Origin: Candidatus Poribacteria bacterium
GTDB taxonomy: Bacteria > Poribacteria > WGA-4E > WGA-3G
Assembly (NCBI GenBank): GCA_965205025.1
Contig: CBDBFU010000002.1
Location: 288,001 to 352,000 of the forward strand
Length of the DNA: 64,000 bases
Direction: 5' to 3'
Shown here one piece after another: positions 1-45,476 of this stretch. The position numbers were made by a program, and so were the translations under genes. The notes under the pieces were generated by a model, which was given only the letters and a program-made list of their open reading frames with translations, did not search any database and was not told where the DNA came from. Position 1 is the stretch's first letter; each line of letters opens with the position of its first letter.

Positions 1-110
1 CTGCAATAGGTCAAGACTCCAAATTTATGGTTTTTATTACGGTTGTTTTAATCGTACTTACTTTGATTTTTATTGTTGGCATGATAATGATGAAATTTCA
101 TAAATATTGA
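1..110 (+). CDS. 3' end of a membrane-anchored protein gene running in from the left edge
   Basis: Open frame ...AIGQDSKFMVFITVVLIVLTLIFIVGMIMMKFHKY* ending TGA 108-110, with a hydrophobic C-terminal helix. Confidence 0.4.
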   Translation, partial: AIGQDSKFMVFITVVLIVLTLIFIVGMIMMKFHKY

Positions 111-164
111 TGCTATCACCTATTTCAATAATAAAACCACCCAAAAGAATAAGTTTCAAACTAC

Positions 165-8236: not shown

Positions 8237-8266
8237 ACATTTACTAATATACATCTGGATGAAACG

Positions 8267-9265: not shown

Positions 9266-9302
9266 TTATAGTAATAGATCTTTGAAATCTATAGGAGGAA
9301 TA

Positions 9303-10049: not shown

Positions 10050-10067
10050 TGTTTGATAACTTTCCTG

Positions 10068-10099
10068 AAAAGGACATAGGATTCATCCTATGGCCTTTT
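10068..10099. terminator. Bidirectional intrinsic terminator between convergent genes
   Basis: AAAAGG-a-CATAGGAT-tc-ATCCTATG-g-CCTTTT. Confidence 0.75.
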
Positions 10100-20588: not shown

Positions 20589-20606
20589 GAAATAAATTGT
20601 GAAAAT

Positions 20607-23952: not shown

Positions 23953-25042
23953 CAGGACTTACGCAGTTTTAAATTTTATTGAAGGATTTGAGAGTTGATG
24001 TTTTAAGTAATCACTCAATAAACCATCTTTAAACTCGTAAATCTTTTGTCCAACAGCACGTACAACACGCGTCATAAAGACCCATACTTGGAAACTACAC
24101 GCAATATGATTTCTCTGGGCACGCATCTTACGACATTGGCATTTACCAATACCGGTTACTTGTTTCATCTCACGATGAAGGAGTTCAATCTTCCAACGGA
24201 GACGACACTTTTGGTGAGTCATATCCACATTTGATTGTGTCAAATCGTTTGTCACTATATATTCCGTGCGTCCGGTATCAGACACAAACCGGAATAACTT
24301 TACGACAGAACCTTTCGGAAAGTTTTTGAGATGTACGCGTTTACCGCTTTTCTTTTCTGCTTGAGACCAAGATAGATCTTTGACTGCCTTGTGAGGTTCT
24401 ACACCTTTGGTATCATTCACAAGACGGTTTCGTTTCAACGGAACATAATAGATCTTAGAAAGTCTATCAATCGCTTTCATCACTTTCATGGACGCATACC
24501 AAGAGTCCATCAAGACTGTCCGGAATGGGAGTTGTTTCTTAGAATAAGCATCGTGCAACATATCCAATAAATGATCGATTTTGGTTTTACCGTCATGATC
24601 TCTGTCAAAAATACGGTAATCAATGACCCAATATTCCTGTGTCTTAGGGTTGACATAGAGACAGGTGACAATACCGATACCTTGAATCACCTTTCTGTCA
24701 CTACCACTCCATTGAGAGCGTACTATTTCAATCCGTTTAGAATGTATTTTTGACAGCACAACATCATCAAAAATCAGGTATCCTTCTTCATCAAAGTCGA
24801 TGTCGTCTTTGACGGATGCCCAGAGTTCACTTGTAGGAATGTTTTCGTCTCTCAGAAAGCGATTGAGTTGATCGTGGCTCCAACGGTCTGTATGTTTAGC
24901 AAAATAAGTTTGTGTAAAATTAGTAAAACTTGAAAACAAATATTGACAATAATCGGAAAATAAGTCTTGCTTCTTTTTAGAATGTGTAAATGTGTTCATA
25001 ATCAATAAGAATAACACATTTTGTAATTTTGCGTAAGTCCTG
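23953..25042 (-). mobile_element. Complete IS701-family insertion sequence
   Basis: Perfect 13-bp IRs CAGGACTTACGCA (23953) / TGCGTAAGTCCTG (25030-25042), 5-bp TSD TTAAT. Confidence 0.92.
23959..25017 (-). CDS. IS701-family DDE transposase
   Basis: SHDQLNRFL, LIFDDVV, VLMDSWY, RWKIELLHREMKQ..G...CQCR. Confidence 0.92.
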   Translation of the reverse strand: MLFLLIMNTFTHSKKKQDLFSDYCQYLFSSFTNFTQTYFAKHTDRWSHDQLNRFLRDENIPTSELWASVKDDIDFDEEGYLIFDDVVLSKIHSKRIEIVRSQWSGSDRKVIQGIGIVTCLYVNPKTQEYWVIDYRIFDRDHDGKTKIDHLLDMLHDAYSKKQLPFRTVLMDSWYASMKVMKAIDRLSKIYYVPLKRNRLVNDTKGVEPHKAVKDLSWSQAEKKSGKRVHLKNFPKGSVVKLFRFVSDTGRTEYIVTNDLTQSNVDMTHQKCRLRWKIELLHREMKQVTGIGKCQCRKMRAQRNHIACSFQVWVFMTRVVRAVGQKIYEFKDGLLSDYLKHQLSNPSIKFKTA

Positions 25043-25296
25043 TTAATACTATTTTCAATTTATAGGTATACATTATGATTTATCTGAAACAAGGATTATC
25101 ATATACGTATTTATGAGTCCCGGGGAATGCCTAAATGGCATTCATACCGTTGATTCGAGGGGCGAAAGGTGTGTAGAAACGAGGGAATCGCGGGTTAGTT
25201 GTCTGAATCGCGGATTACACGGATTACGCAGATTTCACGGAAAAGAGGGGTTTGATAAAAGGTGAATGTTTTTTATTAGGATAATGTCTCTAATTT

Positions 25297-26129
25297 TTAT
25301 TCTGCGGATGATTCTAATTCCTGTAGAAATGCTTCAACGCTGGATGTCTGGATTGCTGTCCGATGCAACCCTAACAAGTGATCAAAGTCTTGAATGGATT
25401 CAAGTGCTTTCGCCACAGGTTGTACATCCTCAAATGGAAAACGTTCGGTAAGAACAGACAAAATATTTCTAATACAAGCTTCAATACCTTGTTCAATACC
25501 TTGTCCAATACCGCGCTGCATTATGAGTTCGATAAAAGGAGATTCTTGCATCATTTCCTCCAATATGAGTTTTTGAAAAAGACTTGCATCGTATGTTAAA
25601 CTACCCAACGTTGATAATGCAAACAATAGTGTGCCACGCGTCTGTGTGTCAACGGGTGCGGATTCCGTCTTTTCGACACACTTTTGCAACCATGCTTCCG
25701 TGTTCATGCCTTCAGGTGGTTTCATTAAGGGTGTGAACGGTAATAGACCAACCGACACTGCATCCAAAAACAACTCACCTTCTAAATCTGCCAATCGAAT
25801 TACCTGATATTTGTGTTGCAAACCAAATGTATCATCTCCATAACTATAGCCACCTGGATCCGTTTGTCCTGCGTTTTGACTTAAATAGAGAACGACTGAA
25901 TAGACTGGAAGTTCATACCGTAGCAGAAGTTCACCAGCATACGCAAGAACACGCAACGGCATCGGTTTATCTCTACTGTCTTGGGTTTGTACTTCTATAT
26001 GAAGTAGTACTGTTTCATTATGCCACCGTACCTTAAATGTCATGTCGTTACGATGGACTTTTACTGTTTGTTGCTCCGTATCAAGTGTCTCTAAGACTTC
26101 AACATTGGATGTAGCAAAAGATAACATGG
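25297..26129 (-). pseudogene. Rpn/YhgA-like recombination-promoting nuclease, 3' part; 5' part displaced to 37029-37109
   Basis: RND..LLHIEVQT, MPLRVLAY, PVYSVVLYL, GIEQG repeats; N-terminus AQYDEIVKHLM..MLSFA lies 10.9 kb away and joins in frame. Confidence 0.85.
26107..26129. repeat. Left copy of a 23-bp direct repeat flanking the inserted cassette
   Basis: GGATGTAGCAAAAGATAACATGG, 22/23 identical to 37029-37051. Confidence 0.9.
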
Positions 26130-26189
26130 TAAATGAGTTGTTTAATCTGAACCGTGAACTATAGGATTAGTTGGCAGTAAAAATATGAT

Positions 26190-27386
26190 TCAGGTTCTCT
26201 TCTTAACCGTTTTTACTGCATGTTCAAACGCCCTTTTATAGATTGTACGTTCAAGTCTATTTCCTACAAAATTTTCAAGATTGTCTTTTTCATCACGTAC
26301 ACGTTTCGCTTCAAAGTTAAAGGCATATAAATTATGACATGCTCGTCGATGTATGTGGTTTTGACCATTCTTATCTTCAAGATAATCTAAGTAAGAAATT
26401 GCGTCTTTTTTACATTTAATTGTCCAAATCTTTCCATTTTCGTTATCCCAATCTTTGATTGAAAAATTTTCTTCAGTGACCATTTTTACTAAATGATCGG
26501 CAAATTTAATACGCCTTTCTTCATATTTCTTTGGGTCTTTTTCTCTTTCTCGAGGTGACAATCGAGTCCAAGAAAATCCTGGTAACTGCACATATTTAAA
26601 TGCCGCGCTTAACATCCAACTCTGTGAATCAACTGAATCAACACCACAATAAAAAGCGAATAACATTAAGAGTGTTGACCCCATTGAGAAACAGTGAATA
26701 TGAGAATTTGGGAGAAGTTTACGGACTATACAAATAATATCAATTGCTTTTTGTTTACTTCCATTACGAGCAAGTGGTGCTAAACTTCCGATGCCGACAA
26801 TAGGAGGTTCTGGTCCGCAGATCTTGATAATTTCATCAATGCGGCGTTTTAAAGTCTGTGAACTATGTCCGTGAATTACAGGCATCAAATGGAAACCATC
26901 TGGAATATCACCGTTCCGAGAATTTAATTCGTCAAACATTCGACGCGTGTTTTCGACAGTATTTTTCCAACGTTTACCTTTTGTACGGGCTGCTGTTTTT
27001 GGTAGGAAAGGATGGTCTAAAACAACAGAGATGTCTGCCCCAAGCTCTAACCCAATTGAAAGAACATCATTAGGGTCAATACTAATGTCAGTGTGTTTTT
27101 GGAAGTTAAATGCACCAGAATCAAGTATCAAAGGACCATTAAACTCAATAAATTCATGAAGTTGACACTTTTTTTCTTTAATTTCTAATGCAGCAATTTT
27201 AGTTTGTTTATTCGCTAATAAATCAAAGGCGTTAAGCAGAACTCCTTGGGTGCCAGTAATATTCCATGGATGGAAACGTAAACGAGCCTGGGGAAAATCT
27301 CCAATGCGGTAACTGGCAAATAATGTTGGTGTTTCAAAAGAATAATCAGAAAAAACTGAAGAATTATCCACATCTTGACTCTTCAA
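26190..27386 (-). CDS. tRNA-guanine transglycosylase (TGT)/DpdA-like protein
   Basis: ILDSGAF, VLDHP, PVIHG, GIGSL, IHCFSMG, DSVDSQSW, HNL; no CxCxxC zinc motif. Confidence 0.8.
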   Translation of the reverse strand: MKSQDVDNSSVFSDYSFETPTLFASYRIGDFPQARLRFHPWNITGTQGVLLNAFDLLANKQTKIAALEIKEKKCQLHEFIEFNGPLILDSGAFNFQKHTDISIDPNDVLSIGLELGADISVVLDHPFLPKTAARTKGKRWKNTVENTRRMFDELNSRNGDIPDGFHLMPVIHGHSSQTLKRRIDEIIKICGPEPPIVGIGSLAPLARNGSKQKAIDIICIVRKLLPNSHIHCFSMGSTLLMLFAFYCGVDSVDSQSWMLSAAFKYVQLPGFSWTRLSPREREKDPKKYEERRIKFADHLVKMVTEENFSIKDWDNENGKIWTIKCKKDAISYLDYLEDKNGQNHIHRRACHNLYAFNFEAKRVRDEKDNLENFVGNRLERTIYKRAFEHAVKTVKKRT

Positions 27387-28564
27387 CTATCATTTTCCAC
27401 TTCTTGACTCAACCGTTCTCGCATTTTAGGTAAAAAATATCCTGGTAAGACATTTAACTCCGCTTTTTCTACAACTCCTTTTAATAATGTATACTCTTCC
27501 TTAACTATCTCTTCAGTTAAAGGCTTTAACTTGTCAGGCCGATTAGATACTGCTTCACCACGTTCTCTTAAATCTAATTCATACTTATTACGACCACTAT
27601 TTAGGTAATCTGAAACGTAGTTAATAGCAAGTTCAAAGTTGGCAATAGGTTGTAGTTCAATTGGTTCTCCTAATCGTCGTTCAATGGCAGGATATTGACG
27701 AAGGTCTTTGGGTTCTGGTACGGTTGCAATAACAAAGAAGACTGATTCCTTTAATGTATCAAAAAGGTGACGTAGGTCTTGGGCATATCGTGATTGCCGT
27801 GAACGAGTTAACCCTTCAAAAATCTCTTCAAATTCGTCAAATAATAGTACAACACCTGTACAGATATCTAATTCTTTTAATAGATTAATAAATCCATTTA
27901 AGAAACGTATTGCAAGTGAAGAACTCGTTATATCTACAGGTGTTTTCCCTCCTTGTATACTTATTATTTTTTTCTCTGATGTAAGAAGTTTATGTCCTTT
28001 CATCCAGCGAAGAAAAACGTCTTTCTGGCGTTCTTCTTCTGAAAATAACGGTATTGTAGAAGGATGAGTGATACTATGAAGTACTTCCAATATTTCATTA
28101 GCTGAAATTACCTTTGTTGAAAGTGACTTTATTAGATTTGAATCTGATCGTAGAACACTAACTAAATCATTCAGGAAAAAACCTGCCAATTTATCAATGA
28201 TTTGTTCATGAATATCAAAATAACTTTCTCCAGGAGCATAAATATAAATTGGACGTAGATTATTGATAAGTTTATTGCGTCTTGCTTCATCTATTAAACG
28301 CTCAAAATACTGTAAAATATTTGTTTTACCTGCTCCATTTTCACCGTTGATCCGTAAGCGTTTGGCATCGGAAGAAAAATTCTGTAAACTATAAACAAAC
28401 TTTTTCTTAATTTCGTCCTGGTCGGTACAAACATCAAAGCCTGTTTCACCATATCCTGGGAATGGATTTTCAAGAAGAAAGTATTTCTCATAAGGATTAA
28501 GTTCTTCCCGTTCAACTTCAAATAAAGAAAGGTCCTTTTTCAATGTCACTATAATCACTCCCAT
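27383..28564 (-). CDS. P-loop ATPase (AAA/STAND- or BrxD-like)
   Basis: ENPFP, Walker A GENGAGKT, Walker B LLFDEFE, AIERR. Confidence 0.8.
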   Translation of the reverse strand: MGVIIVTLKKDLSLFEVEREELNPYEKYFLLENPFPGYGETGFDVCTDQDEIKKKFVYSLQNFSSDAKRLRINGENGAGKTNILQYFERLIDEARRNKLINNLRPIYIYAPGESYFDIHEQIIDKLAGFFLNDLVSVLRSDSNLIKSLSTKVISANEILEVLHSITHPSTIPLFSEEERQKDVFLRWMKGHKLLTSEKKIISIQGGKTPVDITSSSLAIRFLNGFINLLKELDICTGVVLLFDEFEEIFEGLTRSRQSRYAQDLRHLFDTLKESVFFVIATVPEPKDLRQYPAIERRLGEPIELQPIANFELAINYVSDYLNSGRNKYELDLRERGEAVSNRPDKLKPLTEEIVKEEYTLLKGVVEKAELNVLPGYFLPKMRERLSQEVENDS

Positions 28565-29499
28565 CGGACAAGTTTGACCAGACTACCCTTGACACGCATT
28601 CCATCTTCAAGGTAACGATATTCTAACCATTGTGATTTCTGACGATTGTTCTCGCTTCTCTCTTCAGTTTGTTTCCTACCTAACAATTCTGTAGAAAGAC
28701 GTTTGCCGAGGATTTCATTTCTTGGACGGATTGTAATGATTTGGTTTTTACCTGAAATGACACGGCGGATTGTAGCTGGGGCGAGTGTTATTTCACCGGG
28801 AAAAGTTTCTAATAATTGATTCATCTTCATCTCAAAAGCCTGAAAAGATATACGAAGCTCCTGGCAAACTAGATGTGCCAAACGACCAAGGTTTGCATAA
28901 GCAGATGTTTTATCTGTCTGATTGTACTTTTTTAGACAAATTTCTTTAAAGTTCTCTAATGAAGGTTTATTCTTATCCCATTCTCCACCCCAATATAAGA
29001 ATTCTTCAAATGGTGATCGATATGCATGTCCAACAGATATCGCCCAAGGATAAAATGTATCAAATGCTACAAAAGTAATATTATATCTTTCTTTTAAACT
29101 AACTCCTAAAGTTTTCTTAGCTTCTTTATTATGATGTTCCGGTATTTTAATCTGCCCTTGATCCTTTAAGCATTTAAGGAAACTAGCATAAGGTGAGTAA
29201 TTTGTTAATCCTTCATTCATTGGCAGTAGTTGATTTCCTATGTTCCAAGCATCAATAAAACTATGATATTTCTCAGTTAAATATAGAATATCAGATTTTC
29301 CCTCTCTTTGAGTCATCCATTGTGATTCTTTAAAGATTCGAAGTATATCCTTTACGCGCCGATCAAGATCCTTTATTTTTCCTCGACTCTCTATATCAAT
29401 AATCTTATAAAATGTATTCAGAGAGAGTTGATTATCTGTACGATGTGTATCAATAGCATCGGCAACAGAAAGCAACTTATTTATAGTGATCGGGTCCAT
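28555..29499 (-). CDS. Hypothetical protein, operonic
   Basis: 314-aa ORF overlapping the ATPase start; no motif recognised. Confidence 0.75.
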   Translation of the reverse strand: MDPITINKLLSVADAIDTHRTDNQLSLNTFYKIIDIESRGKIKDLDRRVKDILRIFKESQWMTQREGKSDILYLTEKYHSFIDAWNIGNQLLPMNEGLTNYSPYASFLKCLKDQGQIKIPEHHNKEAKKTLGVSLKERYNITFVAFDTFYPWAISVGHAYRSPFEEFLYWGGEWDKNKPSLENFKEICLKKYNQTDKTSAYANLGRLAHLVCQELRISFQAFEMKMNQLLETFPGEITLAPATIRRVISGKNQIITIRPRNEILGKRLSTELLGRKQTEERSENNRQKSQWLEYRYLEDGMRVKGSLVKLVRWE

Positions 29500-29502
29500 T
29501 TA

Positions 29503-30579
29503 TCATTCCTCCTGAATCTCCATCACATCGTGTGCAAAAAATCCTTGTTTTGCTTGTGAGTAATAGGCCAGTTCAATTTTGCGAGAACATTTCTTATTCT
29601 CCAATCGAATCGTACTGAAGACTTGTGCCATATCCCATAGTAGATAATGTATAGGTGTGAGTACTAACTTTCCATTATATGAATCGTATCTAACGGAACT
29701 AATTTTAGTAGGTACTGACGGTGTACCAATATGTAGACTATCTACATTTTCTAAGGTTGACAGTGAAGCCATATCTTTATCACCGGTCAGAAGATAAACA
29801 CCTTGTTGTAATCCTCGGTCTCGTTTAAGGTTTTTTGTGCTTTCAATAATCAATCTATCAATGTTTGAATTACCGTTGGACTGACCTAAGTGCTCAGAAA
29901 GAGTGGTTAGCATTTCTATAGGTCTCCACTGACGAATATGGTTCAATTCTCGACTAATACAAGAAACTTGTGGACGCTGACTCAAAACGCCACATTTACC
30001 AATATGTGGTTGTGTACCTCTCACAGATGCTTCCCAAAGATCACTTACTTCCTTAGCTTGTCTTTGTACTTCAGTCATAACAAAAACTGGTACTACTGTC
30101 CATATCAATACCTTAGATAAAGTTTTGTGCAAGAAAGAGGGAACTGCACGTCGTAAAGCACTCGTATCAACAACAAGTATCAAGTGGATTTGTTCTGAAA
30201 GTCTTTCCATTACATCTCGAAACCCCATTTTAATATTCTGTCTTTCCATTAGGCAAAACTCTGGACGTAGAAGCCCCGTTCGCAATATACTGTCAGCAAG
30301 TTCTGAACATATAAAATCAGCGGCTCTATGTTTTTGTGCCTTTTCATCAGATATTTTGGAAAAATTACATCTAATTTGTTGATTAGTTAAAGGCGTGAAA
30401 GTAAAAGGTAAAATCGGGTGTATCTGCGCAATTTTCTCGGATTCGTCAATTACGATTTCACCGAGTTTGATATATTCATCTTTAGGCAAATGAGTACCAT
30501 CTGTATAGGAAACTTCCCAATTACTCCAGAATCGGTATTCCGCAACAAACTCATCTAATTTTAGCGTACGACTACGCAT
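29503..30579 (-). CDS. PIN-domain protein (putative ribonuclease)
   Basis: LVVDTSAL, VPVFVMTEV, IDRLII, LLTGDKDM supply the PIN acidic residues. Confidence 0.75.
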   Translation of the reverse strand: MRSRTLKLDEFVAEYRFWSNWEVSYTDGTHLPKDEYIKLGEIVIDESEKIAQIHPILPFTFTPLTNQQIRCNFSKISDEKAQKHRAADFICSELADSILRTGLLRPEFCLMERQNIKMGFRDVMERLSEQIHLILVVDTSALRRAVPSFLHKTLSKVLIWTVVPVFVMTEVQRQAKEVSDLWEASVRGTQPHIGKCGVLSQRPQVSCISRELNHIRQWRPIEMLTTLSEHLGQSNGNSNIDRLIIESTKNLKRDRGLQQGVYLLTGDKDMASLSTLENVDSLHIGTPSVPTKISSVRYDSYNGKLVLTPIHYLLWDMAQVFSTIRLENKKCSRKIELAYYSQAKQGFFAHDVMEIQEE

Positions 30580-30997
30580 CAGAAATTCTCACTTTATACT
30601 CAGATTGCAGCTGATAATTCTGTAAAATTTCATGTACAACAGCCAACAAAATAGACTTTGATTTTAATTCTGTCATGAAAGTCGGTTCGCTAAACTTATC
30701 TTGAATATGATCTGAGGATTCTTCTAAGTCTGTATGTAATTCCTCAAATTGAGAGATAGCCTCGTTTATTATTGGATCAGGCAGATAAAAATCAACTTCC
30801 TTTTCACCTGATATTGGCTCATTAGTTTCTAAATCAATTGAGTTCAAATTTTCCACTTTATCCGAGATAGTATTAAGACAAATGATGATTTCACTTTCAT
30901 CTTTCCAATCATGAAAGTCCAAAAGAGAAAGACCTTCTACTTTATAGATATCAACTACTTTGTGTGTTAGAGGATTGACAACTTCTATTTTCATCAT
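30572..30997 (-). CDS. Small acidic hypothetical protein, operonic
   Basis: 141-aa acidic ORF whose stop overlaps the PIN start; GAAGG RBS. Confidence 0.7.
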   Translation of the reverse strand: MMKIEVVNPLTHKVVDIYKVEGLSLLDFHDWKDESEIIICLNTISDKVENLNSIDLETNEPISGEKEVDFYLPDPIINEAISQFEELHTDLEESSDHIQDKFSEPTFMTELKSKSILLAVVHEILQNYQLQSEYKVRISDA

Positions 30998-31026
30998 AAA
31001 ACACCTTCACCAATAGAATTAGAATA

Positions 31027-31509
31027 TTATCCCCATAACCAATTTTTTAACTGGGTTTGTTTTTTTCCAATCGTACCGTAAGTGACTATTTTTTCTATAT
31101 GAATTGGAATTATATTCCCCAGTTCTTCAAATACTTTTAAATACATTCGTCCAAGAACAAAACATACTGAAATGTAATTATTTTGAATTACATTTAAAAA
31201 AGATGATTTGACATCAGATTGGATCTCAGCTACTCGCATTAAGTTCATCTTTTGGTCATACAACTTAGTTTGGTGATCTTTCGAAATAAGTCCATAAGCA
31301 GCAGACAAAATATAAACATCTAATTGCTTTGCTTTGAGCGGACATTCACGAAGAAAACGACGTAAAACAAAAAATAGGGGCCCGTTGTATCTCTCAATCG
31401 CAGGTAACGGCTCTTGAGAAGGGTGTTTCCGCTGGGAACAAGATAAAATCAGCAAACGACGGTGACTGTTCATAACATTCTTTCGCAAATATAAGATCGT
31501 ATTCAACAA
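31027..31509 (-). CDS. DUF6884/YaaA-like protein (start probably ATG 31473)
   Basis: LLILSCSQRK, PAIERYNGPLF, YILSAAYGLI, YDQKM, IGKK. Confidence 0.7.
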   Translation of the reverse strand: MLNTILYLRKNVMNSHRRLLILSCSQRKHPSQEPLPAIERYNGPLFFVLRRFLRECPLKAKQLDVYILSAAYGLISKDHQTKLYDQKMNLMRVAEIQSDVKSSFLNVIQNNYISVCFVLGRMYLKVFEELGNIIPIHIEKIVTYGTIGKKQTQLKNWLWG

Positions 31510-31526
31510 TAAACTGAATTTCTTAT

Positions 31527-31555
31527 ATTGTAAACTACAAGTTATATTATTGCAA
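31527..31555 (-). promoter_or_regulatory. sigma70 promoter of the DUF6884-TGT operon
   Basis: Minus strand TTGCAA-17 nt-TACAAT. Confidence 0.6.
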
Positions 31556-31600
31556 TGGGAAAATTAATGCTTGAATGCAATGGGAAAATTAATGCTTGAA
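31551..31600. repeat. Perfect 25-bp tandem duplication
   Basis: TGCAATGGGAAAATTAATGCTTGAA x2. Confidence 0.95.
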
Positions 31601-32270
31601 AAGACAAGATAGAAAACAGACTGGATTTATTACTACCGATTACACTTCCCGATACTCACCCTGAAACACCTCTCTAACATGCCAACCGATATTCCCTTCA
31701 TCAGGATTAAACGTTCGACTTTGAGGTAGGTTGATTCTCTCCCCATGAAAATTCATCAACCACTCCTGAAATCCAACTGTTCCATGTGCTTCATTAGAGA
31801 CTAAGATATGTAACTGTTTTGACAATGTAAAAGCCCCACGGTCAAATAACTTATGATGCAATGAGCATAAAGCTAATCCGTTTATTTCTTGGTCAGATCC
31901 ACCTGCCATCTGCCATCTAATATGACACGCATCCAGAGCAACAGGAGAATTACCTAATTTGACATCATATCCACAGACTGCACACCTGTATTCATAGGCT
32001 CTTAAAACACTCGTTCGAAAATTCGACAGACGTGTTCCCGTATCAAAAACTGGGAGAGGCAGTTCAATCCCAACGGCTTGCAGAATATCCTCATGAATGG
32101 ATTGGGGGAAATGTGCATCTAACAGATTTTGAACTATTTCAAAACATAGTACATGATCATTTTGAAGTTGTTCGCTTATAGTTTCGTTGAAACCACCAGA
32201 AACATTGTGATTTCTCAGATCAGTTACATGCGCATCACCACTTGCTGTTTCTCTAATCCTATCTGAATTA

Positions 32271-33175
32271 TAGTAAACTTTAGAATTAATGATACATGTT
32301 TATAACTTCATCAATGGTTATATCAGCATTGTATTCTCTGAGACGTTTGATATTCGCAAAGTCGTGTTCAATCGGGTTGTAGTCCGGTGAATAAGGTGGC
32401 AAAAACAATACCTCTGCTCCCGATGCTTCTATCAACTCACGCGTCCGAAGCGTCTTGTGGATCTTCGCATTATCAAGAACAACCACGTCTGAGACAGACA
32501 GCCGTGGACATAAATAGGCTTCAAGCCACGCATTGAAACACGCAGAATCGCAGCTTCCATCAAACAAACAAGGTGCCGTAAAAGTCGAACCGATACGCGC
32601 TGCGACCAGCGTCGTTGTTCGTGTTCTTGTGCCTGAGATCAAACCTAAGACACATTCACCTTTCGGGGCATAGCCATGACGCCTATAACTTTCAGCACGA
32701 AAACCGCATTCATCAACATAAACTATCTTTTTACCAGCGGCGTGTTTCTCGGTGAGTGTCTGACGGTAGCCCCTACGTTTCTCATCGCACCGCTCCTTAT
32801 ATCCGATTGTTTTTTTTTCGTGTGATGCCGAGTTTCCGCAACCCATAGGCTATAGAAGACTCTGAAACACCGAAATGTGAGGCGCGTTCGTTTTGCGTCA
32901 AGTCTGGGAAATCAGCGACATGTTTTTTCAGTGCTGCCTCGTCAAGCACTCTCATGCTTTTGGGCCCCGGTTTTTGGGTCGAAAGCGGGTCTTCAGCGGC
33001 TAACCATCTATAAATCGTTGAACGATTCAGAGAAAAACGACGGGCAGCTTCGGCTTTTTTCCCGCCAGCTTCAATAAAATCTAAAACGCGTTTGCGTAAA
33101 TCTGTTGAATATGCCATAATAGACACATTCTACTACAAAATACAAAAAATGTCTCTTTAATTCTGATGGTCACTA
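32271..33175 (-). mobile_element. Complete IS630-family insertion sequence
   Basis: TA target duplication (32269-32270, 33176-33177); imperfect IRs TAGTAAACTTTAGAATTA / TAATTCTGATGGTCACTA. Confidence 0.92.
32286..33126 (-). CDS. IS630 transposase, HTH ORF (32797-33126) plus DDE ORF (32286-32846), probably joined by a programmed frameshift
   Basis: AYSTDLRKRV HTH; YVDECGF, VLDNAKIH, LPPYSPDYNPIE; A9 run at 32810-32818 in the overlap. Confidence 0.88.
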
Positions 33176-33455
33176 TAGTCACTTCCCAGATGCCATCGTT
33201 TTGTAATCGCCAAAATGGAAAATGTGGATTGTAGCTATCGCGTCTTGGACCAAAATCTCTCAACAGGTTTCTTAAGTTATCTTCTATATCGTCAGTATAT
33301 GAGATTAACCTATCTTCACCACGTAACAATTTTCCAATTGCATATAGAAGTAACAAGGGTTTATGGGGTGCTCTTTCACCACCACTTGTCCATAGTCGGA
33401 AAGTTTCAAAAAGCCGAATTAATTCCGCCCTATCCATAACCAATATCCTACAATA

Positions 33456-34274
33456 TCATTTATGACACACCAAACACGGTTCCTCGTCATCCTCATCGTC
33501 ATGCACATCTGTGAGAATTTCGATGAGGCGTTGATTTGGTTTATCTTTTTTCTTTGATGCCTTCGCTTGTTCAGTACGTTCTTTGATCTGCTCTATACGT
33601 TCAGGGTTTGCCAATTCCTCTAAACTCTCTCCCTGACTCCATGTGAACCGTTCACCAGTCTCTGGATTAAACTTTTCGTAACTCTTGGCAAGTTCAAACA
33701 GATCTGGATGTTGTTCTAAGAGTCCAACCCATTCGGATTTACGTTGGAAAAAACAGAAGTAACAACCGGAACGTGTTCGCCAGTTGTAGTAGTCTGGCAT
33801 ACCGAGACCGCTTTCCTCCAGAATTTGGTATACATTCTCTTTGGTAATACCGTCCTCTTTGAACGGATATTTGGGTTCGATGTTTCGGAGAGAGGTGGTT
33901 TTTAGCGGTTTATATCCAACACGATCTTCGTCAGCACGGATAGCAATGTAGTGATATGCATGATCTTCACCGACATATTCTTCAAACGGTCTGATCTTGA
34001 GTTTGATAGTGCACCAACGCACTTGGGAAGAGGGCAGCATCCCGCCGTGAAGTGTTAGCCAGTGGTCGAAATCTCGTTCTACGTTGAGACGTGCAATCGG
34101 TTTGCCAAGGAATGCTTCTAAACGGTCAAGAAAGTCGTAGGTCTCTGGTAGTTCTTTCCCAGTATCCGTAAAGAAATACTCCATTTCTGGAACTCTGTCA
34201 CGCATATAGACTGCAAGTGCAGAACTATCTTTTCCACCTGAGAGTCCAAGAAGATGCCGTATATTTTTTGCCAT
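33456..34274 (-). CDS. sspD: PAPS-reductase-family PT synthase SspD, copy 2
   Basis: SGGKDS, RWCT, RSGCYFCFFQ, C-terminal CLVCHK; follows an sspC homolog. Confidence 0.85.
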   Translation of the reverse strand: MAKNIRHLLGLSGGKDSSALAVYMRDRVPEMEYFFTDTGKELPETYDFLDRLEAFLGKPIARLNVERDFDHWLTLHGGMLPSSQVRWCTIKLKIRPFEEYVGEDHAYHYIAIRADEDRVGYKPLKTTSLRNIEPKYPFKEDGITKENVYQILEESGLGMPDYYNWRTRSGCYFCFFQRKSEWVGLLEQHPDLFELAKSYEKFNPETGERFTWSQGESLEELANPERIEQIKERTEQAKASKKKDKPNQRLIEILTDVHDDEDDEEPCLVCHK

Positions 34275-34332
34275 GTTCTCCCCTGTTTACATCCTGTTAT
34301 TGATTTAGCACATATATAGGAATAAACAAATG

Positions 34333-37029
34333 TTATTCTTCCGATTCTTGCAATATTTCTTTTGAAATTCGCGCTAAAACTGCGAGACGAAGTTCTGAAT
34401 CATTTTCTACATCCAGATCATTAAGAACCTTTTTAATCGCCTGTTCAATTCTATCCGCGTGTTCAGGGTTAGTTAAGGTAACAACCCGTTCCTGTTCCTG
34501 TTCATTCGGTGAAGTGATACCTATCCGTATTGTCTCACCTTCAATTTCCGTGTGTTGCAGTTTTTCATAAGACACTGCTTCAAAATGGTTAAATTTTCTT
34601 ACGATTTGGGATAGGTTAATCTCAAATTGAGCGATGTCTGTATCTGTCCAAGATGCGGGTGGTTTTTTCACAACAAAAGTCCCAATTGATTCAATCCAAC
34701 TTGTGAAATCATGCCCTTCATTGTAAAGGTGTATTATAAATCCTTTGAGTTGTGGTTCAATAACGAATTCTAATAAAGATTCAGCCCTTTTGCCTAATTC
34801 AGTTCTAAGTTCTGCTCCTGTCGACTTCAAGGCAAATGCTTCTGCAAGCATCCGTTCAAGTAAGTTCAGCAACCCTTCGTACGCACCCCCAAGTTCGGAT
34901 AGTGTGTCTTGTAATGTGTTGAAAAAGTCTGAAAGGATCTTTGGATCTGATTTTTCTGTACCAAAACTTGGAAAACCTAATACCTTAGGTAACGCATTAA
35001 AGAGTAATTCGTCTGGTTCACTTGCTTTGTTAACCACCTCACGTAGATTTCTTGCGTTATCGCTTAACACTTGTGTTTTTTGTGTATACGCAGGAAGTTG
35101 TGCAACAAAACGGATCAACGGTGTAATGATTGTCAAAAGGTCCGGATTTTCGCTTTCCATAGGTTGATTGAGCATATCCAAAAATCGTTTAAATAGATCC
35201 CTACGTATACCTTCCATTCGGAACCGTTTAAGTTCAAAGTGTTGAGGTGCTTTAAGTAATCTTTCAAAAACCGGTACAGATAGATCTGCAACAAAGGTTC
35301 CATTTTCATAGAGTGCAACTTCAGTTTTATAGTAGATAATCGCCGCACACAACAAAATTGGTAGTGGACCTTCCCGTACTCCATAGGGAAGAGACATTAG
35401 ACTTTTATAAAGTTTTTCAACAGGTTGCCGTTCCTCTTCACATTCAACAAGGCATTCCTCAATTGCATTCCATATATGTTTGAGACCATTTGCATCATCT
35501 GCTCTTGGGGGATGGAACCCAAACTGTCCTGTCTCGTAACGATGTATCCCCGTATTCCATAGCAATGAACGGAATATACTCATCTCAGCAGGATACCCTT
35601 TGATACCAAGATCTTTTTGATCCCCATTCTCAAGCATGTGTTGAATCAGTTTTCTACGGGCGGAAGTAGAAGCACCAGATATTTTCCGCCTATTTATGAG
35701 TTCATTCTTAATAATTGGTGTCTTATGATACACCTGATCACATATTATTGACAAATATCGGTTTCGTTCACGTATCGAAGTTATTTTTATGTGTTCCCTT
35801 TTGTAATACCAATCACATGTATCTTGATTCATACTCTCAAAAGTCTTCATTATTTCATCCTGTACATTGCGTTCAGCCTCAACTTGTCGTATTGAGAGTT
35901 CTCGTCTTGCGACAGCATCGCCTTCAAGTTCAGGTGTATTCTCGTTAATCCAACGTAAGTAAGCAAGTTGGGAGACTGCGTCACGTAGAAACCCAATGGA
36001 TCGTGGAATAGCAACCAAAACCCTACTGTATGTTTCAGGATCTAATAACTGCGCTTTTTCAGTCAGTAGTTTCACTTCATGTTCATGTGATGGTAGTGTA
36101 TATAGCACAAGTCCATCTGCATCATCCAGTGGCTCAGATATATCCGAGTCAAAGTTATCAATATCGGTATATCTAACATTGAAATATCGTAGTGTACCAG
36201 TCTGATATAAATGTCTGCTGGCAATAAGAGGACGGGTTGGCATGTGGTTCGATAAATCAGTCGCAAGTGTTACATGTGTATCAACATGTTTTTCTGCCTC
36301 GCGGAGTCTCTCTTCAATGTCAATATCACTTCCTTCCCAAAGTGAGAAGTTATCATTGAAACGACGGTAAATTACAATTGAACGGTTCTTTAAAGTGGAA
36401 AGAGCATCTTGAAATTCGGTATTGGACGCTTGCGTACTATCAAGTGCGTAACGAAGTAATTGTTCAGAGGCTTTTAGGTTTGGAATTGGCTCGCTTACGA
36501 TACCGAGTAGACCAATAGTCTTTATCAATCTAACAGTCATTTCTGAAGGATTCTCTAATTGATGAATAGCGGATTCAATCTCTGTCCATTTCTTTCCAGC
36601 ATCAGCTGTATAGAATCGGCTCGCATGTGCAGCATTTAGATAATCGTATAAATGGGAAAGTGTATATGTTGGTAATACTTTTCCATCATAATGATTGTTA
36701 GAAAGAAATTCTTGTAAACCGTACGGTTCACTGGAACTAAGAAATGCAAAAAGTGATCGTTCATTCTGAGCAAAACGTCTGAATAAGGGTCCGATGAGGA
36801 GTGCGACAGTCGGATGAAGTGGGAAACAATTTTCTAATAATTGTGTGAATTCTGTATCCTCAAGTTGATGTGGTTTTAGTGCCAATTCAAGTGCAGTTTC
36901 AAGATTTTGGTTTACATCAATTTCTGAACGATTTTCTAATGCCTCCCCTACCAAACGTAGCACCTGTTCAGTGGGTTCAACAAAGGCGACATCCTCAAAC
37001 CGTCCCTGTATTTTTGCCCACTCTTCACG
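34333..37029 (-). pseudogene. sspC: 5'-truncated SspC, copy 2 (no Walker A/B region)
   Basis: Homologous to 45477-49013 from REEWAKIQGRFED onward (PLHP, QNERSLFAFL, WEGSDIDI, NELINRR); cut off abruptly at the 23-bp repeat. Confidence 0.85.
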
Positions 37030-37109
37030 GATGGAGCAAAAGATAACATGGCGAAGTCATCAGCGAAACTGTACATCAGATGCTTCACGATTTCATCATA
37101 TTGTGCTAT
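37029..37109 (-). pseudogene. Displaced 5' end of the Rpn gene plus the right 23-bp direct repeat (37029-37051)
   Basis: (I/M)AQYDEIVKHLMYSFADDFAMLSFA; MLSFA is also the start of the 25297-26127 ORF. Confidence 0.85.
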
Positions 37110-37140
37110 GTAAAGTGTTTCGCAGTTAGTCGTTTTGGAC

Positions 37141-37976
37141 TTAGGAATTATACAGTTTCCCATCCCATAGATTCAAATAGATACCTCCAAAAGACTTGTG
37201 GGTCCTTCCTATAATTATACTTATAACACCCTCTGCCACATACAATGGTGCATACGCAATGCTATAGTGATGATGTGATCCGTACCACGCTCGTTTTAAA
37301 AGAGACCAAAACCCTTCTATTGTGTTAGTATGAACATCTCCATCTACAAATTGACTTTCGTGACGAATAACAGAATGTCTAATCTCTCTGCTAACAATAT
37401 TGTAAATCCGAAATTCATCTGTGATTAGTTCAGATTCATCCATGCTTACATAAACCTTACCGTCTCTTTCAACAGCGCCAATCACTGCCTGTTTAGATGT
37501 TCCACGACCTCGCTTTATAGGTTCATCGTCTTCGCACTTATTTCGTTTTCTCGGTTTACCACCAATATAGGTTTCATCTGCTTCTATAATACCTGATAAT
37601 AACGGATCTGTTTTATCTGCCATTTCTGCACGTATACGAGTCATCATATACCACGCAACTTTTTGCTTTATATCCAAATCACGGGCTAATTGACAACTTG
37701 ATAAGTTTTCTTGGCATTCAACATTAACGCAATCGCTAAAAACCATTTCTGTAATGGTATTTTAGTACCATGAAAATACTGTGCCTTGTGTAACTTTGAA
37801 ACTGACTTTACATGAGTTCCAATTCCATCTGCCGATTCTACCTGTTTCTTTGCGTTTAGTAACTCGATCTCCACCACAATGAACATAAACAGGATTATCA
37901 CTCCATCGGATATGCTCTAAGAATGATATGCAGGTTGACTGATCGGGAATAATTCCATGAATTCAACTAAATTCAT
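37141..37976 (-). pseudogene. IS1595-family transposase, frameshifted
   Basis: MNLVEF start, FHGTKIPLQKWF, QLARDL, IEADETYIGGK, HTNTIEGFWSLLKR spread over several frames. Confidence 0.85.
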
Positions 37977-38400
37977 ATCTATTTTCCTTTTTTTATAATG
38001 AGACAACTTGCCAATCTATCACACAACAATCATAATCAACTGCCGTTATATTACATATTGTGCCGTATCATCAATCATTGTCAATCAAAAAAAATGATTC
38101 TATCGTTTAAATTTAAATCACAATCGTTAACTGCCATAATATCAGTTGAAAGTGTGGAATAGTCTATGACTGCACAATTTGCGAAATGGTAATTACGGGT
38201 TTTTCTGAAACATTTAGCTGAAAATTACGTTCATTAATAATGCTTTAAGTTGTCTTCACAATGTTACACAAGTAAAAATGTTGTGTTTTTTCAAAAAGTA
38301 TGATACCATATATTACTGCAAAACGGCAATTTGCCCTAGTTACAAACGTGTTTTTAGTCAATTGCGTTACAAAATTTGCAGTAATATATGGAGGGTATGA

Positions 38401-39096: not shown

Positions 39097-39169
39097 TGGG
39101 GAGTAGCTTAATTGGTAAAGCAGCTGGCTGCGAGCCAAAAGGTTAGGGGTTCAAATCCCTCTCCTCCAT
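39097..39169 (+). tRNA. Degenerate tRNA-like sequence (anticodon position GCG, Arg)
   Basis: TAGCTTAATTGGTAAAGC D-arm, TGG-CTGCGAG-CCA anticodon arm, GGGGTTCAAATCCCT T-arm; mismatched acceptor and anticodon stems; TGnTATAAT at 39057-39065. Confidence 0.55.
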
Positions 39170-39779: not shown

Positions 39780-42212
39780 TTATTCTATCCATTGCCTGAT
39801 TTCATCTACACCAAAATTTATGATAAATTCTGCGTAATGACTTGAAAACAGATCTCTAAGGTATGTACCAACTTCAATGTCCGATTTTACTCCATCCTCA
39901 TTCTCTTGCACAAGTTGATATTTATGTGCTTTTGTAATTGTGTACAAAAACAGTGTGTGCGCGTAGACAGAAGCAATATACTTTCGATTACCATTTTCAA
40001 TTTGCTCCTCGCTAGGATTTCTGTTTTTGGCTCTGAAATTCATCAAAACATTACTATCCATATTGATGTATATCTTTTCTAACTTCTCCCCATTAACTAT
40101 AGGATGTATTACTGTGGTATAGTCCATTGTATATCCAGTTCCCGATTCAAAACGTTCCCATGATATTGAACCATTCTTTTCTGTCTGATTAACCAATATC
40201 GGTTCCGGTAAACCTAAGGTAGGTGCGTCCTTTTGTTCCGGTTTTGGGGTAGGTTCGGTAGGAACTTTAGTTTCGCTAATTTTAACCCAAAATATTTCAT
40301 TGTATTCTCCTACTGGATCTGCTAATGTGACTTTTATCTCAATTTCATCTCCAACATCCAGTTCTTCTTTTGGACTAAGATGGAGTTTAATAGTTCCATC
40401 TTGTGGACTGCTTTTACGAGCATTAAATACATCCTCAACTCGGTCAACCTTTCCTGGAGCATTCCCACCTGTAGTTTCATTTTTATTATAATTCAAAATG
40501 GCAATTTTTAATTCACCAGGTTCTTCAATTCGATCAAAATAATTATTCTCCACATCTGTATCAAAAAGAATTGTTTTCTCTCCACCAGACGGTATAGAAA
40601 CGACCTCCCTATCAGCTTTCCCTTGTGATCGGCGTTTGAAGGAAGAAGGAAAACGTTGGGGGTTAAACGGTTCAGGAACAATGTCTTTTCGTTTCTTCTT
40701 AGAATGGTTTGTATTTTGTTTTCCTTTAGCTTTAAGATCCAGATTTAAAGTCTGATCCAATAATTTAAACAATTCTTCGTTATGTGTAATATCCTTTAGA
40801 AAAGTTTTGAGCAATTCTTTTGTACCTTCACTCTCAACTGATATAGAATCCTTCCTACGTTTTTGAATTTCCGCTAAACGACCATCCTTAGCCGTAAGTT
40901 TTCTAGCTAAAAAATCTCTTAACTTCAGGGATTCCTCACCCTTCTTTAACCGATCTCGCGATGCCATAAATAATTCTTTGCTAAAACTCCTTTTCATATT
41001 TGTACAATCAACATGAATTAGGAGATGGTTCTTAAGAATACTCATTTTTAATGAATTGGATATAAATTCAGTTGTATAATGTCCATGAACTTGTCCATTG
41101 ATAGAAAACAGAACACGCATATTATTTTTGAAAAACTCTCTATCAATTGTATCTTTAGTTTCTTTTACTGATTTATCCTCAATTTTTGTTTTAAAGATAT
41201 AACAGGTAACTTTCATTTTACCAAAAAGCGTGTCATCATACTCATCTGAAAAAGAATCCTCAACATACTTGTTGTCTTCTTGTTCTAATCTACGTTTTAA
41301 CCCGTATAAGCCTCTACGTAAGGAACTTTGAGGATATCGTTTTTCGTCTTCAATGGTGTAGACAGGGAGAACTGGTTCAAACAGATATTCATTAATACTC
41401 CGGTTCAAATCTCTTGAAATATCAGAAATTCTTGGAAGATCGTAAGAGTAAAGTTTAATGACTGTACCAGTAATGAATTTTCTTTTGAAGAGACCTAAAT
41501 CCAGTTCATCAATAGAGAATGCGGGGATTTTCCCGTCAATCTTTAAGTATTCATACCATGTATTCTTTTTTGTACTTTCTTCTTCTATGGACAGTGGATG
41601 TTCTCTGATAAGAGTAAAACCGAATTCTCCAGTATTGTCGAAACGTTTTGAGGCAATTAATTGGTAACGTTTCTTACCACAAAATACAATTGCCCCACTT
41701 CCGCCCATATTGTATTTTCCTTGCACAAAGTGTATTTCATTTTTATTACCACGTAATAAGGATAAGAAAGTATCTTTAAAGTCTTCAGGGCGTTGTCCTT
41801 CACCATTATCATAGATTATTAGAGAAGTATTTTTCCTTGGACCATCGGCTAAAATCTGTATATTTTCAGCTTGTTTATTTCTTGTATTTGCCAGATCCCA
41901 ATCTCTATGTTTTGGGAAGAATAAGGTTCTGGCTTCTTCCATAGATTGTGGGGCTTGAAGTGATTTCGGATCGATGTTTGCTTCAAGGCATTTCTTCATT
42001 AAGACAGCATCAATTGAATTTGTGATTTTCTCTATCAATGCTGCAATTGGAGTAGATTGTTGGTTTTCGACTATAGCAAAGTTGTTCTCTCTATCACCAA
42101 GGAGAGACCAGTTATCTGACTTGAAAATGTTGGGATGATTGTTGATAATTGTATCAACTTCTTGCTCAGTTTGAGCAAAATATAGCTTATCAAAAAGTTG
42201 TTTCATGTTCAT
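39780..42212 (-). CDS. GHKL (MORC/Hsp90-like) ATPase-domain protein
   Basis: Bergerat motifs EKITNSIDA, YDNGEGQ, QGKYNMGGSG, GTVIKL. Confidence 0.75.
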   Translation of the reverse strand: MNMKQLFDKLYFAQTEQEVDTIINNHPNIFKSDNWSLLGDRENNFAIVENQQSTPIAALIEKITNSIDAVLMKKCLEANIDPKSLQAPQSMEEARTLFFPKHRDWDLANTRNKQAENIQILADGPRKNTSLIIYDNGEGQRPEDFKDTFLSLLRGNKNEIHFVQGKYNMGGSGAIVFCGKKRYQLIASKRFDNTGEFGFTLIREHPLSIEEESTKKNTWYEYLKIDGKIPAFSIDELDLGLFKRKFITGTVIKLYSYDLPRISDISRDLNRSINEYLFEPVLPVYTIEDEKRYPQSSLRRGLYGLKRRLEQEDNKYVEDSFSDEYDDTLFGKMKVTCYIFKTKIEDKSVKETKDTIDREFFKNNMRVLFSINGQVHGHYTTEFISNSLKMSILKNHLLIHVDCTNMKRSFSKELFMASRDRLKKGEESLKLRDFLARKLTAKDGRLAEIQKRRKDSISVESEGTKELLKTFLKDITHNEELFKLLDQTLNLDLKAKGKQNTNHSKKKRKDIVPEPFNPQRFPSSFKRRSQGKADREVVSIPSGGEKTILFDTDVENNYFDRIEEPGELKIAILNYNKNETTGGNAPGKVDRVEDVFNARKSSPQDGTIKLHLSPKEELDVGDEIEIKVTLADPVGEYNEIFWVKISETKVPTEPTPKPEQKDAPTLGLPEPILVNQTEKNGSISWERFESGTGYTMDYTTVIHPIVNGEKLEKIYINMDSNVLMNFRAKNRNPSEEQIENGNRKYIASVYAHTLFLYTITKAHKYQLVQENEDGVKSDIEVGTYLRDLFSSHYAEFIINFGVDEIRQWIE

Positions 42213-42258
42213 TCATAGTTTGTTTTGCATAGCATAAATATCAATTAAGGCTGGACAT

Positions 42259-44553: not shown

Positions 44554-44577
44554 GTAGAAACTCCTTATAATGAATTA

Positions 44578-45408
44578 TTACTTATGACATACCAAACAAG
44601 GTTCCTCGTCATCCTCATCGTCATGCACATCGGTGAGGATTTCAATAAGGCGTTGATTTGGTTTATCTTTTTTCTTTGATGCCTTCGCTTGTTCGGTGTG
44701 TTCTTTAATTTGTTCTATCCGTTCAGGAGTTGCCAATTCTTCTAAACTCTCGCCTTGACTCCATGTAAACCGTTCGCCAGTTTCTGGATTGAACTTCTCG
44801 TATCCTTTGGCACGTTCAAACAGATCTGGATGTTGTTCCAAGAGTCCAACCCATTCGGATTTGCGTTGGAAGAAACAGAAGTAGCAACCGGAACGTGTCC
44901 GCCAGTTGTAGTAATCAGGCATTCCGAGACCGCTCTCCTCCAGAATTTGGTACACATCCTCTTTGGTAATACCGTCTTCTTTGAATGGATATTTGGGTTC
45001 GATGTTTCGGAGAGAGGTTGTTTTTAGAGGCTTGTAACCAACCCGATCCTCATCGGCACGTATAGCAATGTAATGATACGCCTTACTATCTCCAATGTTT
45101 TTTTCTACATATTTCTCAAAAGGTTTTATTTTCAGTTTGATGGTACACCAACGCACTTGAGATGACGGCAACATATTTCCGTGAAGTGTTAACCAGTGAT
45201 CAAAATCTCGCTCAACATTTAGTCGTTTAATCGTTTTACCGAGAAATACCTCAAGGCGTTCAAGAAACTCATATGTTTCTGGTAATTCCTTACCGGTATC
45301 AGTAAAAAAATATTCCATCTCAGGAATTTTGTCCCGCATATAAATAGCGAGTGCTGAGCTGTCTTTGCCACCCGAAAGTCCAAGAAGATGGTGTATTTTT
45401 CTTGCCAT
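44578..45408 (-). CDS. sspD: PAPS-reductase-family PT synthase SspD, copy 1
   Basis: SGGKDS, RWCT, RSGCYFCFFQ, CLVCHK; in sspBCD order. Confidence 0.88.
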   Translation of the reverse strand: MARKIHHLLGLSGGKDSSALAIYMRDKIPEMEYFFTDTGKELPETYEFLERLEVFLGKTIKRLNVERDFDHWLTLHGNMLPSSQVRWCTIKLKIKPFEKYVEKNIGDSKAYHYIAIRADEDRVGYKPLKTTSLRNIEPKYPFKEDGITKEDVYQILEESGLGMPDYYNWRTRSGCYFCFFQRKSEWVGLLEQHPDLFERAKGYEKFNPETGERFTWSQGESLEELATPERIEQIKEHTEQAKASKKKDKPNQRLIEILTDVHDDEDDEEPCLVCHK

Positions 45409-45476
45409 TCTGCCTCCGTAAATAATTTATTGACAATACTTTTTAATATTAAACAACACTCTGAGAAAATGTAAAA

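Follow-up and report, generated by a model that had tools for sequence, protein, structure and literature searches.

Homology-facilitated illegitimate recombination (HFIR) combines one homologous end with one illegitimate end (PMC3240628), and it is the model proposed for the arrays left behind by sequential displacement (PMC5361080). Arrays of rpn genes are described as arising by tandem duplication without target-site duplications (PMC10400941). We describe a locus of a Candidatus Poribacteria bacterium, within a 64,000 bp stretch of contig CBDBFU010000002.1 (positions 288,001 to 352,000, forward strand; all of it is referred to here as the window), in which an Rpn-like gene (rpn) is split into two parts that lie on either side of a block of defence genes and overlap in a 23 bp direct repeat. 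An earlier note, made from the sequence alone, had proposed that a foreign cassette was inserted into rpn at a long staggered cut and that the repeat is the resulting target duplication. The locus is a new instance of known island mosaicism, and it is more likely that the two 23 bp copies belong to different rpn copies (alleles) than that they are a target duplication from one staggered cut.

The repeat, the block and the split gene

The two copies of the repeat (GGATGTAGCAAAAGATAACATGG at 26107–26129 and GGATGGAGCAAAAGATAACATGG at 37029–37051) are at the positions given in the earlier note, are identical at 22 of 23 bases and have a spacing of 10922. We used the intact paralog at locus L004 of the same genome (297 amino acids (aa); its ATG is nt 1) as a ruler for rpn coordinates. 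On this ruler window positions 37109..37029 correspond to rpn nt 1–81 and positions 26129..25297 to nt 59–895, and both repeat copies are nt 59–81 of one Rpn-like gene, at the end of a 5′ stub in the first case and at the start of a 5′-truncated copy in the second. The repeat therefore reflects homology within one gene family and not chance. Intact paralogs read MAQYDEIVKHLMDRFADDFAMLSFATSDVEV, so the gene restored by collapsing the two copies is colinear with them and in frame, as had been claimed.

Every gene between the repeat copies is on the minus strand. The block itself (26130–37028) opens inside sspC, where the PADLOC SspC profile is matched only from position ~257–266 of ~1054, and the break falls exactly before the R in ...QSQ|REEWAK, a reading that holds for 11 of 11 fetched congener loci and for the full-length SspC elsewhere in the window. 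The bases preceding the upper break are the ATC of rpn, where sspC homologues have CAA (ATC|CG vs CAA|CG), so the whole 23-mer is rpn and the upper joint has a microhomology of 0–1 nt. The CAA (Gln) before CGT in all of the same SspC sequences rules out that the upper repeat takes its final bases (CATCC) from sspC. At its other end the block stops 60 nt past the TGA (26190–26192) of a gene of the TGT superfamily. No pair of terminal inverted repeats joins the two block ends, and no integrase was found among open reading frames (ORFs) of ≥100 aa in Pfam, NCBIfam and PADLOC scans; the sole transposase inside the block is that of an IS630-family element interrupting another gene. The bounds and orientation of the block and its lack of an integrase and of terminal inverted repeats are as first described. 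Both junctions are illegitimate and the Rpn-like gene is split. There is one copy of the truncated sspC in the genome, with two SspC matches genome-wide, and the two SspC proteins of the window are 53% identical, so the two ssp units to which they belong (A, upstream of the stub, and B, in the block) are not a recent duplication.

Logan contigs from two runs, X8 and X9, span the lower junction (26035–26718) with 0 differences in both, and also the upper junction (33867–37064 in X8 and 34216–37110 in X9); the two runs are from one study and one of them may be the source of the assembly. The repeat and its junctions are not an assembly join, on which the earlier note was right, and the feature is real. 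Contigs of a third run, X3, join 26105 to 37028 and 26112 to 37035, as in an intact rpn; their short side is only 62–69 nt at ≥90% and may come from paralogs, and they are not counted here as an empty site. There is little or no contig cover over unit A and the TGT cassette in X1 and X3, where missing cover is not evidence of absence, and the contig depth of the block in X8 and X9 is ~0.7–0.8 of that of unit A, although contig depth cannot rank regions.

By profile comparison the split gene is only remotely Rpn-like, which corrects the earlier note. The intact paralog scores 17.8 bits with TIGR01784 (cut-off 52.1) and 15.7 with PF04754 (cut-off 21), and a distant paralog scores 25.9 bits with TIGR01784, all below the cut-offs. 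Comparison of the family alignment with the four PF04754 proteins of the genome using hhalign gives an E value of 1.1e-4 and a probability of 56% over 218 colinear columns that take in the core and the C-terminal domain. Residues D48, E65 and Q67 are invariant in the family (a PD-(D/E)XK-type core, D...ExQ), QG(I/V)x repeats vary in number across it, and 82-aa genes downstream duplicate the C-terminal domain. A sequence search of the PDB with the family profile gave chance-level matches only. Homologues of the split gene are unnamed proteins of Candidatus Poribacteria metagenome-assembled genomes, which are also the nearest named records of the lineage, and one JGI record is titled 'predicted transposase YdaD'. 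Two of the four true PF04754 (Transposase_31/Rpn) genes of the genome flank the region at a distance (94–106 bits), one at window 59306–60280 (minus strand) and the other at C2:285052–285933, just to the left of the window.

The orthologous locus and rpn stubs in the genus

When the flanks of 15 congener loci were compared with those of the window, only two loci, from the two closest species (G004 and G018), shared them. The left flank (tmRNA, smpB and a 327-aa ORF) has 88–95% DNA identity in both, and the right flank is shared by G004 at 90%. Between the flanks, in the same orientation, are an sspB remnant (the first 26–29 aa), sspD, an HNH endonuclease gene, an intact rpn and a small rpnS-like gene. 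The two rpn pieces of the window map to one contiguous gene in these species, with the 23-mer region present once; in G004 they match locus positions 9180–10036 and 10013–10105, which overlap in the single 23-mer copy. An intact rpn allele therefore exists at the orthologous site, but this is no empty site without the block, since two block genes, sspD and the HNH endonuclease, sit directly upstream of rpn. Part of the supposed insert is thus native to this site in G004 and G018, and the claim of a foreign cassette inserted into rpn is unsupported. The block sspD is also nearer to these orthologues, with 88.5% and 87.1% DNA identity to G018 and G004 compared with 81.9% and 80.3% for the sspD of unit A, and the sspD tree has the form (A,(B,(G004,G018))). 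We note that G004 (L167 12777–13747) and G018 (L168 810–1778) have in common a deletion that fuses the first 26–29 sspB codons almost directly to sspD, with sspC gone; they retain sspD and the endonuclease gene without the remaining modification genes.

In the congener loci that were fetched (G003, G005, G006, G020, G021, G045, G004, G018 and G050), rpn as a rule comes after an ssp unit. In G021 and G045 the order is sspD, endonuclease, DUF6884 and onward to TGT, then a short spacer, a conserved TTGACA-N17-TATAAT promoter module and rpn. Across the order, rpn is ≤1.5 kb downstream of the TGT cassette in two of 18 loci examined, both of them in this genus. Arrays of rpn genes, stub-plus-rpnS genes and stubs often trail the ssp–rpn loci (G050, G053 and G007). 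Stubs with a promoter of their own are also found upstream of cassettes. In G009 a stub (nt −18..119) is followed by an 810-aa gene and then a second stub. A second example is in G007, where the promoter and rpn nt 1–70 run across a TCCT microhomology into the final 17 endonuclease codons, and a spacer and the TGT cassette come next as in the window. This fusion is the architecture of the window, an rpn stub on a 5′-truncated unit B, but it arose independently and with a different breakpoint. At least six species have stubs that stop at rpn nt 70 (with G047, G046, G043, G011 and G055 also named). In the stub loci of G009 and G007 the promoters of the downstream rpn copies are retained, which shows that such loci normally involve several rpn copies (two or more).

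Two further features accompany these stubs. A 40–41-aa ORF consisting of the first 23 Rpn-like codons and the last 17 HNH endonuclease codons occurs with the promoter in at least six species (in G007 at L044 9644–9766, L044 16775–16912 and L045 1548–1617); one copy overlaps (ATGA) the start of a gene for a 199-aa membrane protein, and the fusion ORF may function as a leader that is expressed, or it may be no more than a portable scar of recombination. The promoter module (~45 nt, cccTTGACAa-N17-TATAATcaataaaa) is found ahead of rpn genes and of stubs, and in G001 also ahead of an unrelated gene (after TGT; at least one such gene has it), and is better conserved than the adjacent coding DNA (L043 ~10240–10310, L066, L069 and several sites in L044).

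We surveyed the rpn matches listed for 40 genomes, with 32 weaker matches of one search unlisted, and found many breakpoints (at nt ~27, 46, 70, 76, 95, 105–108, 119 and 137–158), internal deletions, insertions of miniature inverted-repeat transposable elements (MITEs) and one 77-nt tandem duplication. No second split rpn with overlapping ends is among these listed matches and the genome itself has no other split rpn, and neither source yields the further rpn paralogs with ~20–25 bp duplications that the earlier note had envisaged. Promoter-bearing stubs upstream of cassettes, by contrast, recur, and the claim of a long staggered cut is unsupported. The 77-nt duplication is internal to an rpn copy in G016 (C156:19503–20295). 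A hotspot for breakage at nt 59–81 was considered and rejected: the nt-70 stubs are one fusion family (rpn joined to the endonuclease tail), the break at nt ~76 in G050 is a 330-nt MITE with 11-nt terminal inverted repeats and a TTGG duplication (L159 ~7409–8669), and the C20 copy (G000 C20:153126–153983) has a ~100-nt hairpin MITE, unlike the event in the window.

Possible origins of the locus

Our best explanation, which we hold with roughly even confidence, is that two allelic variants of the island were merged by HFIR anchored in rpn and that the lower rpn separately lost its 5′ end. The window has two ssp units in tandem at one chromosomal locus, A consisting of sspBCDE and an 810-aa gene, and B of sspC′, sspD and the HNH endonuclease gene together with the six-gene TGT cassette. 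DNA with the island in its other allelic form would have entered the cell and recombined homologously at one end, either in the common rpn and flank or in the common 5′ region of sspB and its flank, and at the other end illegitimate recombination would have created a single new joint between rpn nt 81 and sspC codon ~267. The outcome would be an rpn stub upstream of a 5′-truncated unit B, in the pattern of 'sequential displacement'. This merger predicts a complete lower rpn with a promoter, and the window has neither the promoter nor nt 1–58, so a second event is needed. The lower rpn may have lost them in a deletion of ~130 nt (judged against G021 and G045) or with the arrival of the TGT cassette, at a right-hand joint that was itself illegitimate; as an IS701-family element has replaced the rpnS-like partner of the nuclease gene, silencing of this gene would have been favoured. 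The 23 bp would then be the residual overlap between a stub that ends at nt 81 and a truncated copy that starts at nt 59. The merger would account for the stub, the 5′-truncated sspC, the common orientation and the absence of an integrase. The unit types have rpn and its flanks in common, and one joint is clearly illegitimate. The junctions, the synteny and the recurrence of stubs are observed directly, and we infer the order of events, the incoming unit and the recombination pathway. Two rpn copies that are each truncated, the case that the earlier note had set against its own proposal, is now the more likely reading although it is not proven, and the interpretation in that note is overall partly supported.

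Several observations weigh against such a merger. First, the 23-nt in-register overlap must be partly coincidence, for which a rough estimate is 3–10% if the two ends are independent, and this would rise if the joint forms near a homology boundary. Second, both rpn pieces are closest to the resident paralog C20 (75/81 for the upper piece and 114/120 for nt 59–178 of the lower), and there is no divergent, donor-like patch at the 5′ end of the lower copy, and a single split gene would explain this no less well. The paralog C20 is itself 22/23 identical to the lower repeat copy and 21/23 to the upper, with the consequence that near-identity over 23 nt cannot separate alleles from a duplication. 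Third, the upper joint has 0–1 nt of microhomology where HFIR joints usually have 3–10 (PMC3240628); the independent G007-type joint has TCCT. Fourth, local support for the node uniting SspD of unit B with G004 and G018 is weak (0.40). Fifth, no parental allele was found, neither an A-type locus with an intact rpn at this site nor a B-type locus with promoter and rpn. Exact 32-mer searches for a donor or an empty allele gave 0 matches in genome contigs and 0 in metagenome contigs, and protein-guided scans with SspC′ found nothing above 61% identity outside the genus or above 70% within it. Finally, the 60-nt spacer (26130–26189, minus strand, from the TGT stop to rpn nt 59) cannot be aligned to those of congeners, so the promoter deletion is something that we infer and do not see. 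The spacer has no promoter-like or terminator-like site, and its alignments as either the pre-promoter spacer of congeners or a promoter remnant are no better than those of shuffled sequences (p ~0.4–0.5; 0.98 for G007).

A one-step insertion, in which neither end of a linear 10.9-kb fragment (sspC′ to TGT plus 60 nt) needs homology to be joined to a single resident rpn, is unlikely. Nicks 23 nt apart, or repair by primer-template switching, would duplicate nt 59–81, and the pieces are indeed exactly colinear and in register, both are C20-like at ~93–95% identity, and the repeat copies differ at one position only. The blunt upper joint and a lower copy without a promoter are also as this insertion would have them, and the products of RpnA, a nonspecific endonuclease, can prime polymerase, with joining by template switching (PMC5350276). 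However, the fragment would need to have reproduced, by coincidence, an arrangement (sspD–endonuclease–(TGT)–rpn) whose order and orientation are native in G004, G018, G021 and G045, and two illegitimate joints would be needed despite the long homology available in rpn and its flank. There is neither Ku nor RVT_1 in the 95.5%-complete assembly, which argues as well against the end-joining and target-primed routes suggested earlier, and no second example is among the listed matches. A duplication made by fill-in also starts out identical, and the mismatch then needs a later mutation. The particular form of one-step capture in which two nicks 23 nt apart or template switching make the 23 bp a footprint of Rpn-type, integrase-free and Ku-free cassette entry is doubtful; were a one-step insertion true, the locus would provide the first footprint in nature of RecA-independent insertion of the Rpn type.

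An older tandem array (unit A, rpn, perhaps rpnS, sspB, sspC and onward to TGT, promoter and rpn), cut down by two independent deletions, one from rpn nt 82 to sspC codon 266 and the other from the spacer to rpn nt 58, is also improbable. Arrays of rpn, stub and rpnS genes do trail ssp loci in G050, G053 and G007, internal deletions and truncations of rpn are frequent, and selection would favour deletions with an early start in a gene for a toxic nuclease. Against this, no fetched congener locus has two tandem ssp units with rpn between them, three events are needed, and the coincidence of the 23-nt overlap stays.

Integration of an aberrant circle of Campbell type (sspC′ to TGT, 60 nt and rpn nt 59–81) by one crossover in the 23 bp of homology would yield the exact structure, and a donor allele could be the source of the mismatch, which in the upper copy is near the sspC side. 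In one study, single crossovers with circles of shortened homology produced duplications in most E. coli clones (56/60 by polymerase chain reaction, 14 sequenced; PMC3240628). Nevertheless, we consider it very unlikely, as it needs a donor rpn already without nt 1–58, an illegitimate closure of the circle and recombination on 23 bp with a mismatch; no circle-type joint is present in the X8 and X9 contigs, which cannot show rare forms. That assembly or binning has fused the alleles of two strains is extremely improbable. The assembly has 33 contigs with 4.3% contamination, and the contig depths of the block and unit A differ somewhat, with the limit on depths given above, but the independent read assemblies span both junctions without differences, and neither junction is within sequence common to both sides, as the CAA|CG of sspC homologues and the ATC|CG of the window illustrate. 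Lastly, an RNA-mediated (target-primed) insertion of a 5′-truncated operon transcript, although suggested by a co-oriented, 5′-truncated block that ends after the last gene of the operon, is barely credible: the assembly has no RVT_1 match, the 60-nt tail lacks a terminator-like site, the cDNA would have to be 10.9 kb long, and synteny accounts for the co-orientation.

If the merger of two island alleles is true, the locus, though an ordinary one, illustrates clearly how a defence island is built without integrases: alternative Ssp units with a common terminal Rpn-like gene are swapped or stacked by homologous-plus-illegitimate recombination, and stubs can mimic target-site duplications. It is then a documented look-alike of a target-site duplication, and a warning for scans that read any in-register repeat as the footprint of transposition. 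The recurring joints of an rpn stub with a truncated unit in this sponge-associated lineage suggest that rpn-like genes provide portable homology for cassette exchange.

Gene content and relation to known systems

Along the minus strand the window has unit A, then tRNA-Arg(gcg), two small ORFs and an IS1595-family element, the rpn stub, unit B, the six-gene cassette, the 60-nt spacer, the truncated rpn and the IS701-family element. Unit A (39780..49935, minus strand) includes sspB (48985–49935), a full-length sspC (45477–49013), sspD (44578–45408), sspE (42259–44553) and the 810-aa gene (39780–42212). The IS1595-family insertion sequence (37123..38000, minus strand; transposase ORF 37141–37746, far end approximate) is directly upstream of the stub (37029..37122, minus strand), which consists of the 13 nt of leader that remain before this element and rpn nt 1–81, with the upper repeat copy at 37029–37051. 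Its start codon is ATA and not the ATG previously assigned, and with this start and only a 13-nt leader the stub is dead in its own right. The 3′ part of rpn (25297..26129, minus strand, nt 59–895) lacks a promoter and the first 20 codons; it has a 276-codon open frame from an internal ATG (26127) and starts with the lower repeat copy (26107..26129, rpn nt 81–59). The IS701-family transposase gene (23959..25017, minus strand; the element spans 23953–25201) sits where G004 and G018 have the small rpnS-like gene, so the truncated rpn is without its putative antitoxin partner.

In unit B, sspC (34333..37028, minus strand) lacks approximately its first 266 codons, with the frame open from 37029, and sspD (33456..34274, minus strand) is intact. 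The gene for a phosphorothioate-DNA-binding HNH restriction endonuclease (31640..33443, minus strand) is split by the IS630-family element (32269–33175, TA..TA), which has two overlapping transposase ORFs. A 4161-nt contig from metagenome run X3 is without exactly these 907 nt and is 97–98% identical over the endonuclease gene. The six-gene cassette (26190..31509, minus strand) encodes a DUF6884 protein (31027–31509), a 141-aa ORF, a PIN-like protein of 358 aa, a 314-aa ORF, a P-loop ATPase (27383–28564) with weak BrxC/D and TniB matches, and the TGT-superfamily protein (26190–27386). Of 159 genomes of the order, 18 have the cassette conserved as a block. The spacer that separates DUF6884 from the endonuclease gene contains a 25-nt unit (TGCAATGGGAAAATTAATGCTTGAA, 31551–31600) twice in perfect tandem, and this unit is single in the aligned spacers of G021 and G007. 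The tRNA-Arg with anticodon GCG (39097–39169, plus strand) is within the island and has no DNA match in the 39 other genomes of the genus (E≤1e-10); it may be island-borne or degenerate. A tRNA or tmRNA as the integration site was rejected, as tmRNA and smpB (20238–21110) are core flank and there is no integrase beside tmRNA or tRNA-Arg(gcg).

SspB, SspC, SspD and SspE of unit A are strong PADLOC matches to the SspABCD–SspE phosphorothioate defence system, to which the SspD and SspC fragment of unit B also belong. Unit B differs in having no adjacent sspB, no SspC residues before ~266 and an HNH restriction partner broken by IS630, and it is probably inactive as a modification system, judging from these gene defects. 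The cassette departs from the Dpd (DpdA) 7-deazaguanine DNA-modification system: the DpdA profile NF041059 scores 26.6 bits on the TGT protein (cut-off 200) and the TGT superfamily model alone passes (61.5, cut-off 47.6), and Dpd partner genes are not recognized, the sole PADLOC match in the cassette being the DUF6884 protein (candidate PDC-M57A, with DpdC weak). It may be an undescribed DpdA-like defence system.

A transposon, insertion sequence or casposon-like insertion with target-site duplication resembles the locus in that a direct repeat of the target flanks the block and collapsing it restores a gene. It differs in that the block ends have no terminal inverted repeats, transposase or integrase, the repeat is imperfect, the block is partly native to the site in sister species, and neither another copy nor another such event was found. 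The split gene is like Rpn (YhgA-like, PF04754) and RpnS in its PD-(D/E)XK core, its variable C-terminal domain with four-residue repeats, a small separate copy downstream, and its occurrence in defence islands and in arrays (PMC10400941, PMC5350276), and the description of RpnL and RpnS in PMC10400941 fits the split gene and the 82-aa downstream gene. It is below the curated cut-offs of both Rpn models, and the four true PF04754 genes of the genome are another family of ~360 aa. Nothing in the window shows that the Rpn-like protein made the junctions, as RpnA-promoted RecA-independent recombination would have it. Closest are HFIR and sequential displacement, as seen in T6SS effector–immunity modules and Rhs/CDI orphan tips. 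Here the anchor would be different, either the Rpn-like toxin gene in which Ssp units end at the 3′ side or the sspB and flank side, the microhomology is shorter and no parental alleles were found. In both settings, however, an anchor is common to the alternative modules and there is one illegitimate joint, the older module is retained in truncated form beside the new one, no integrase is involved, and stubs accumulate (PMC3240628, PMC5361080).

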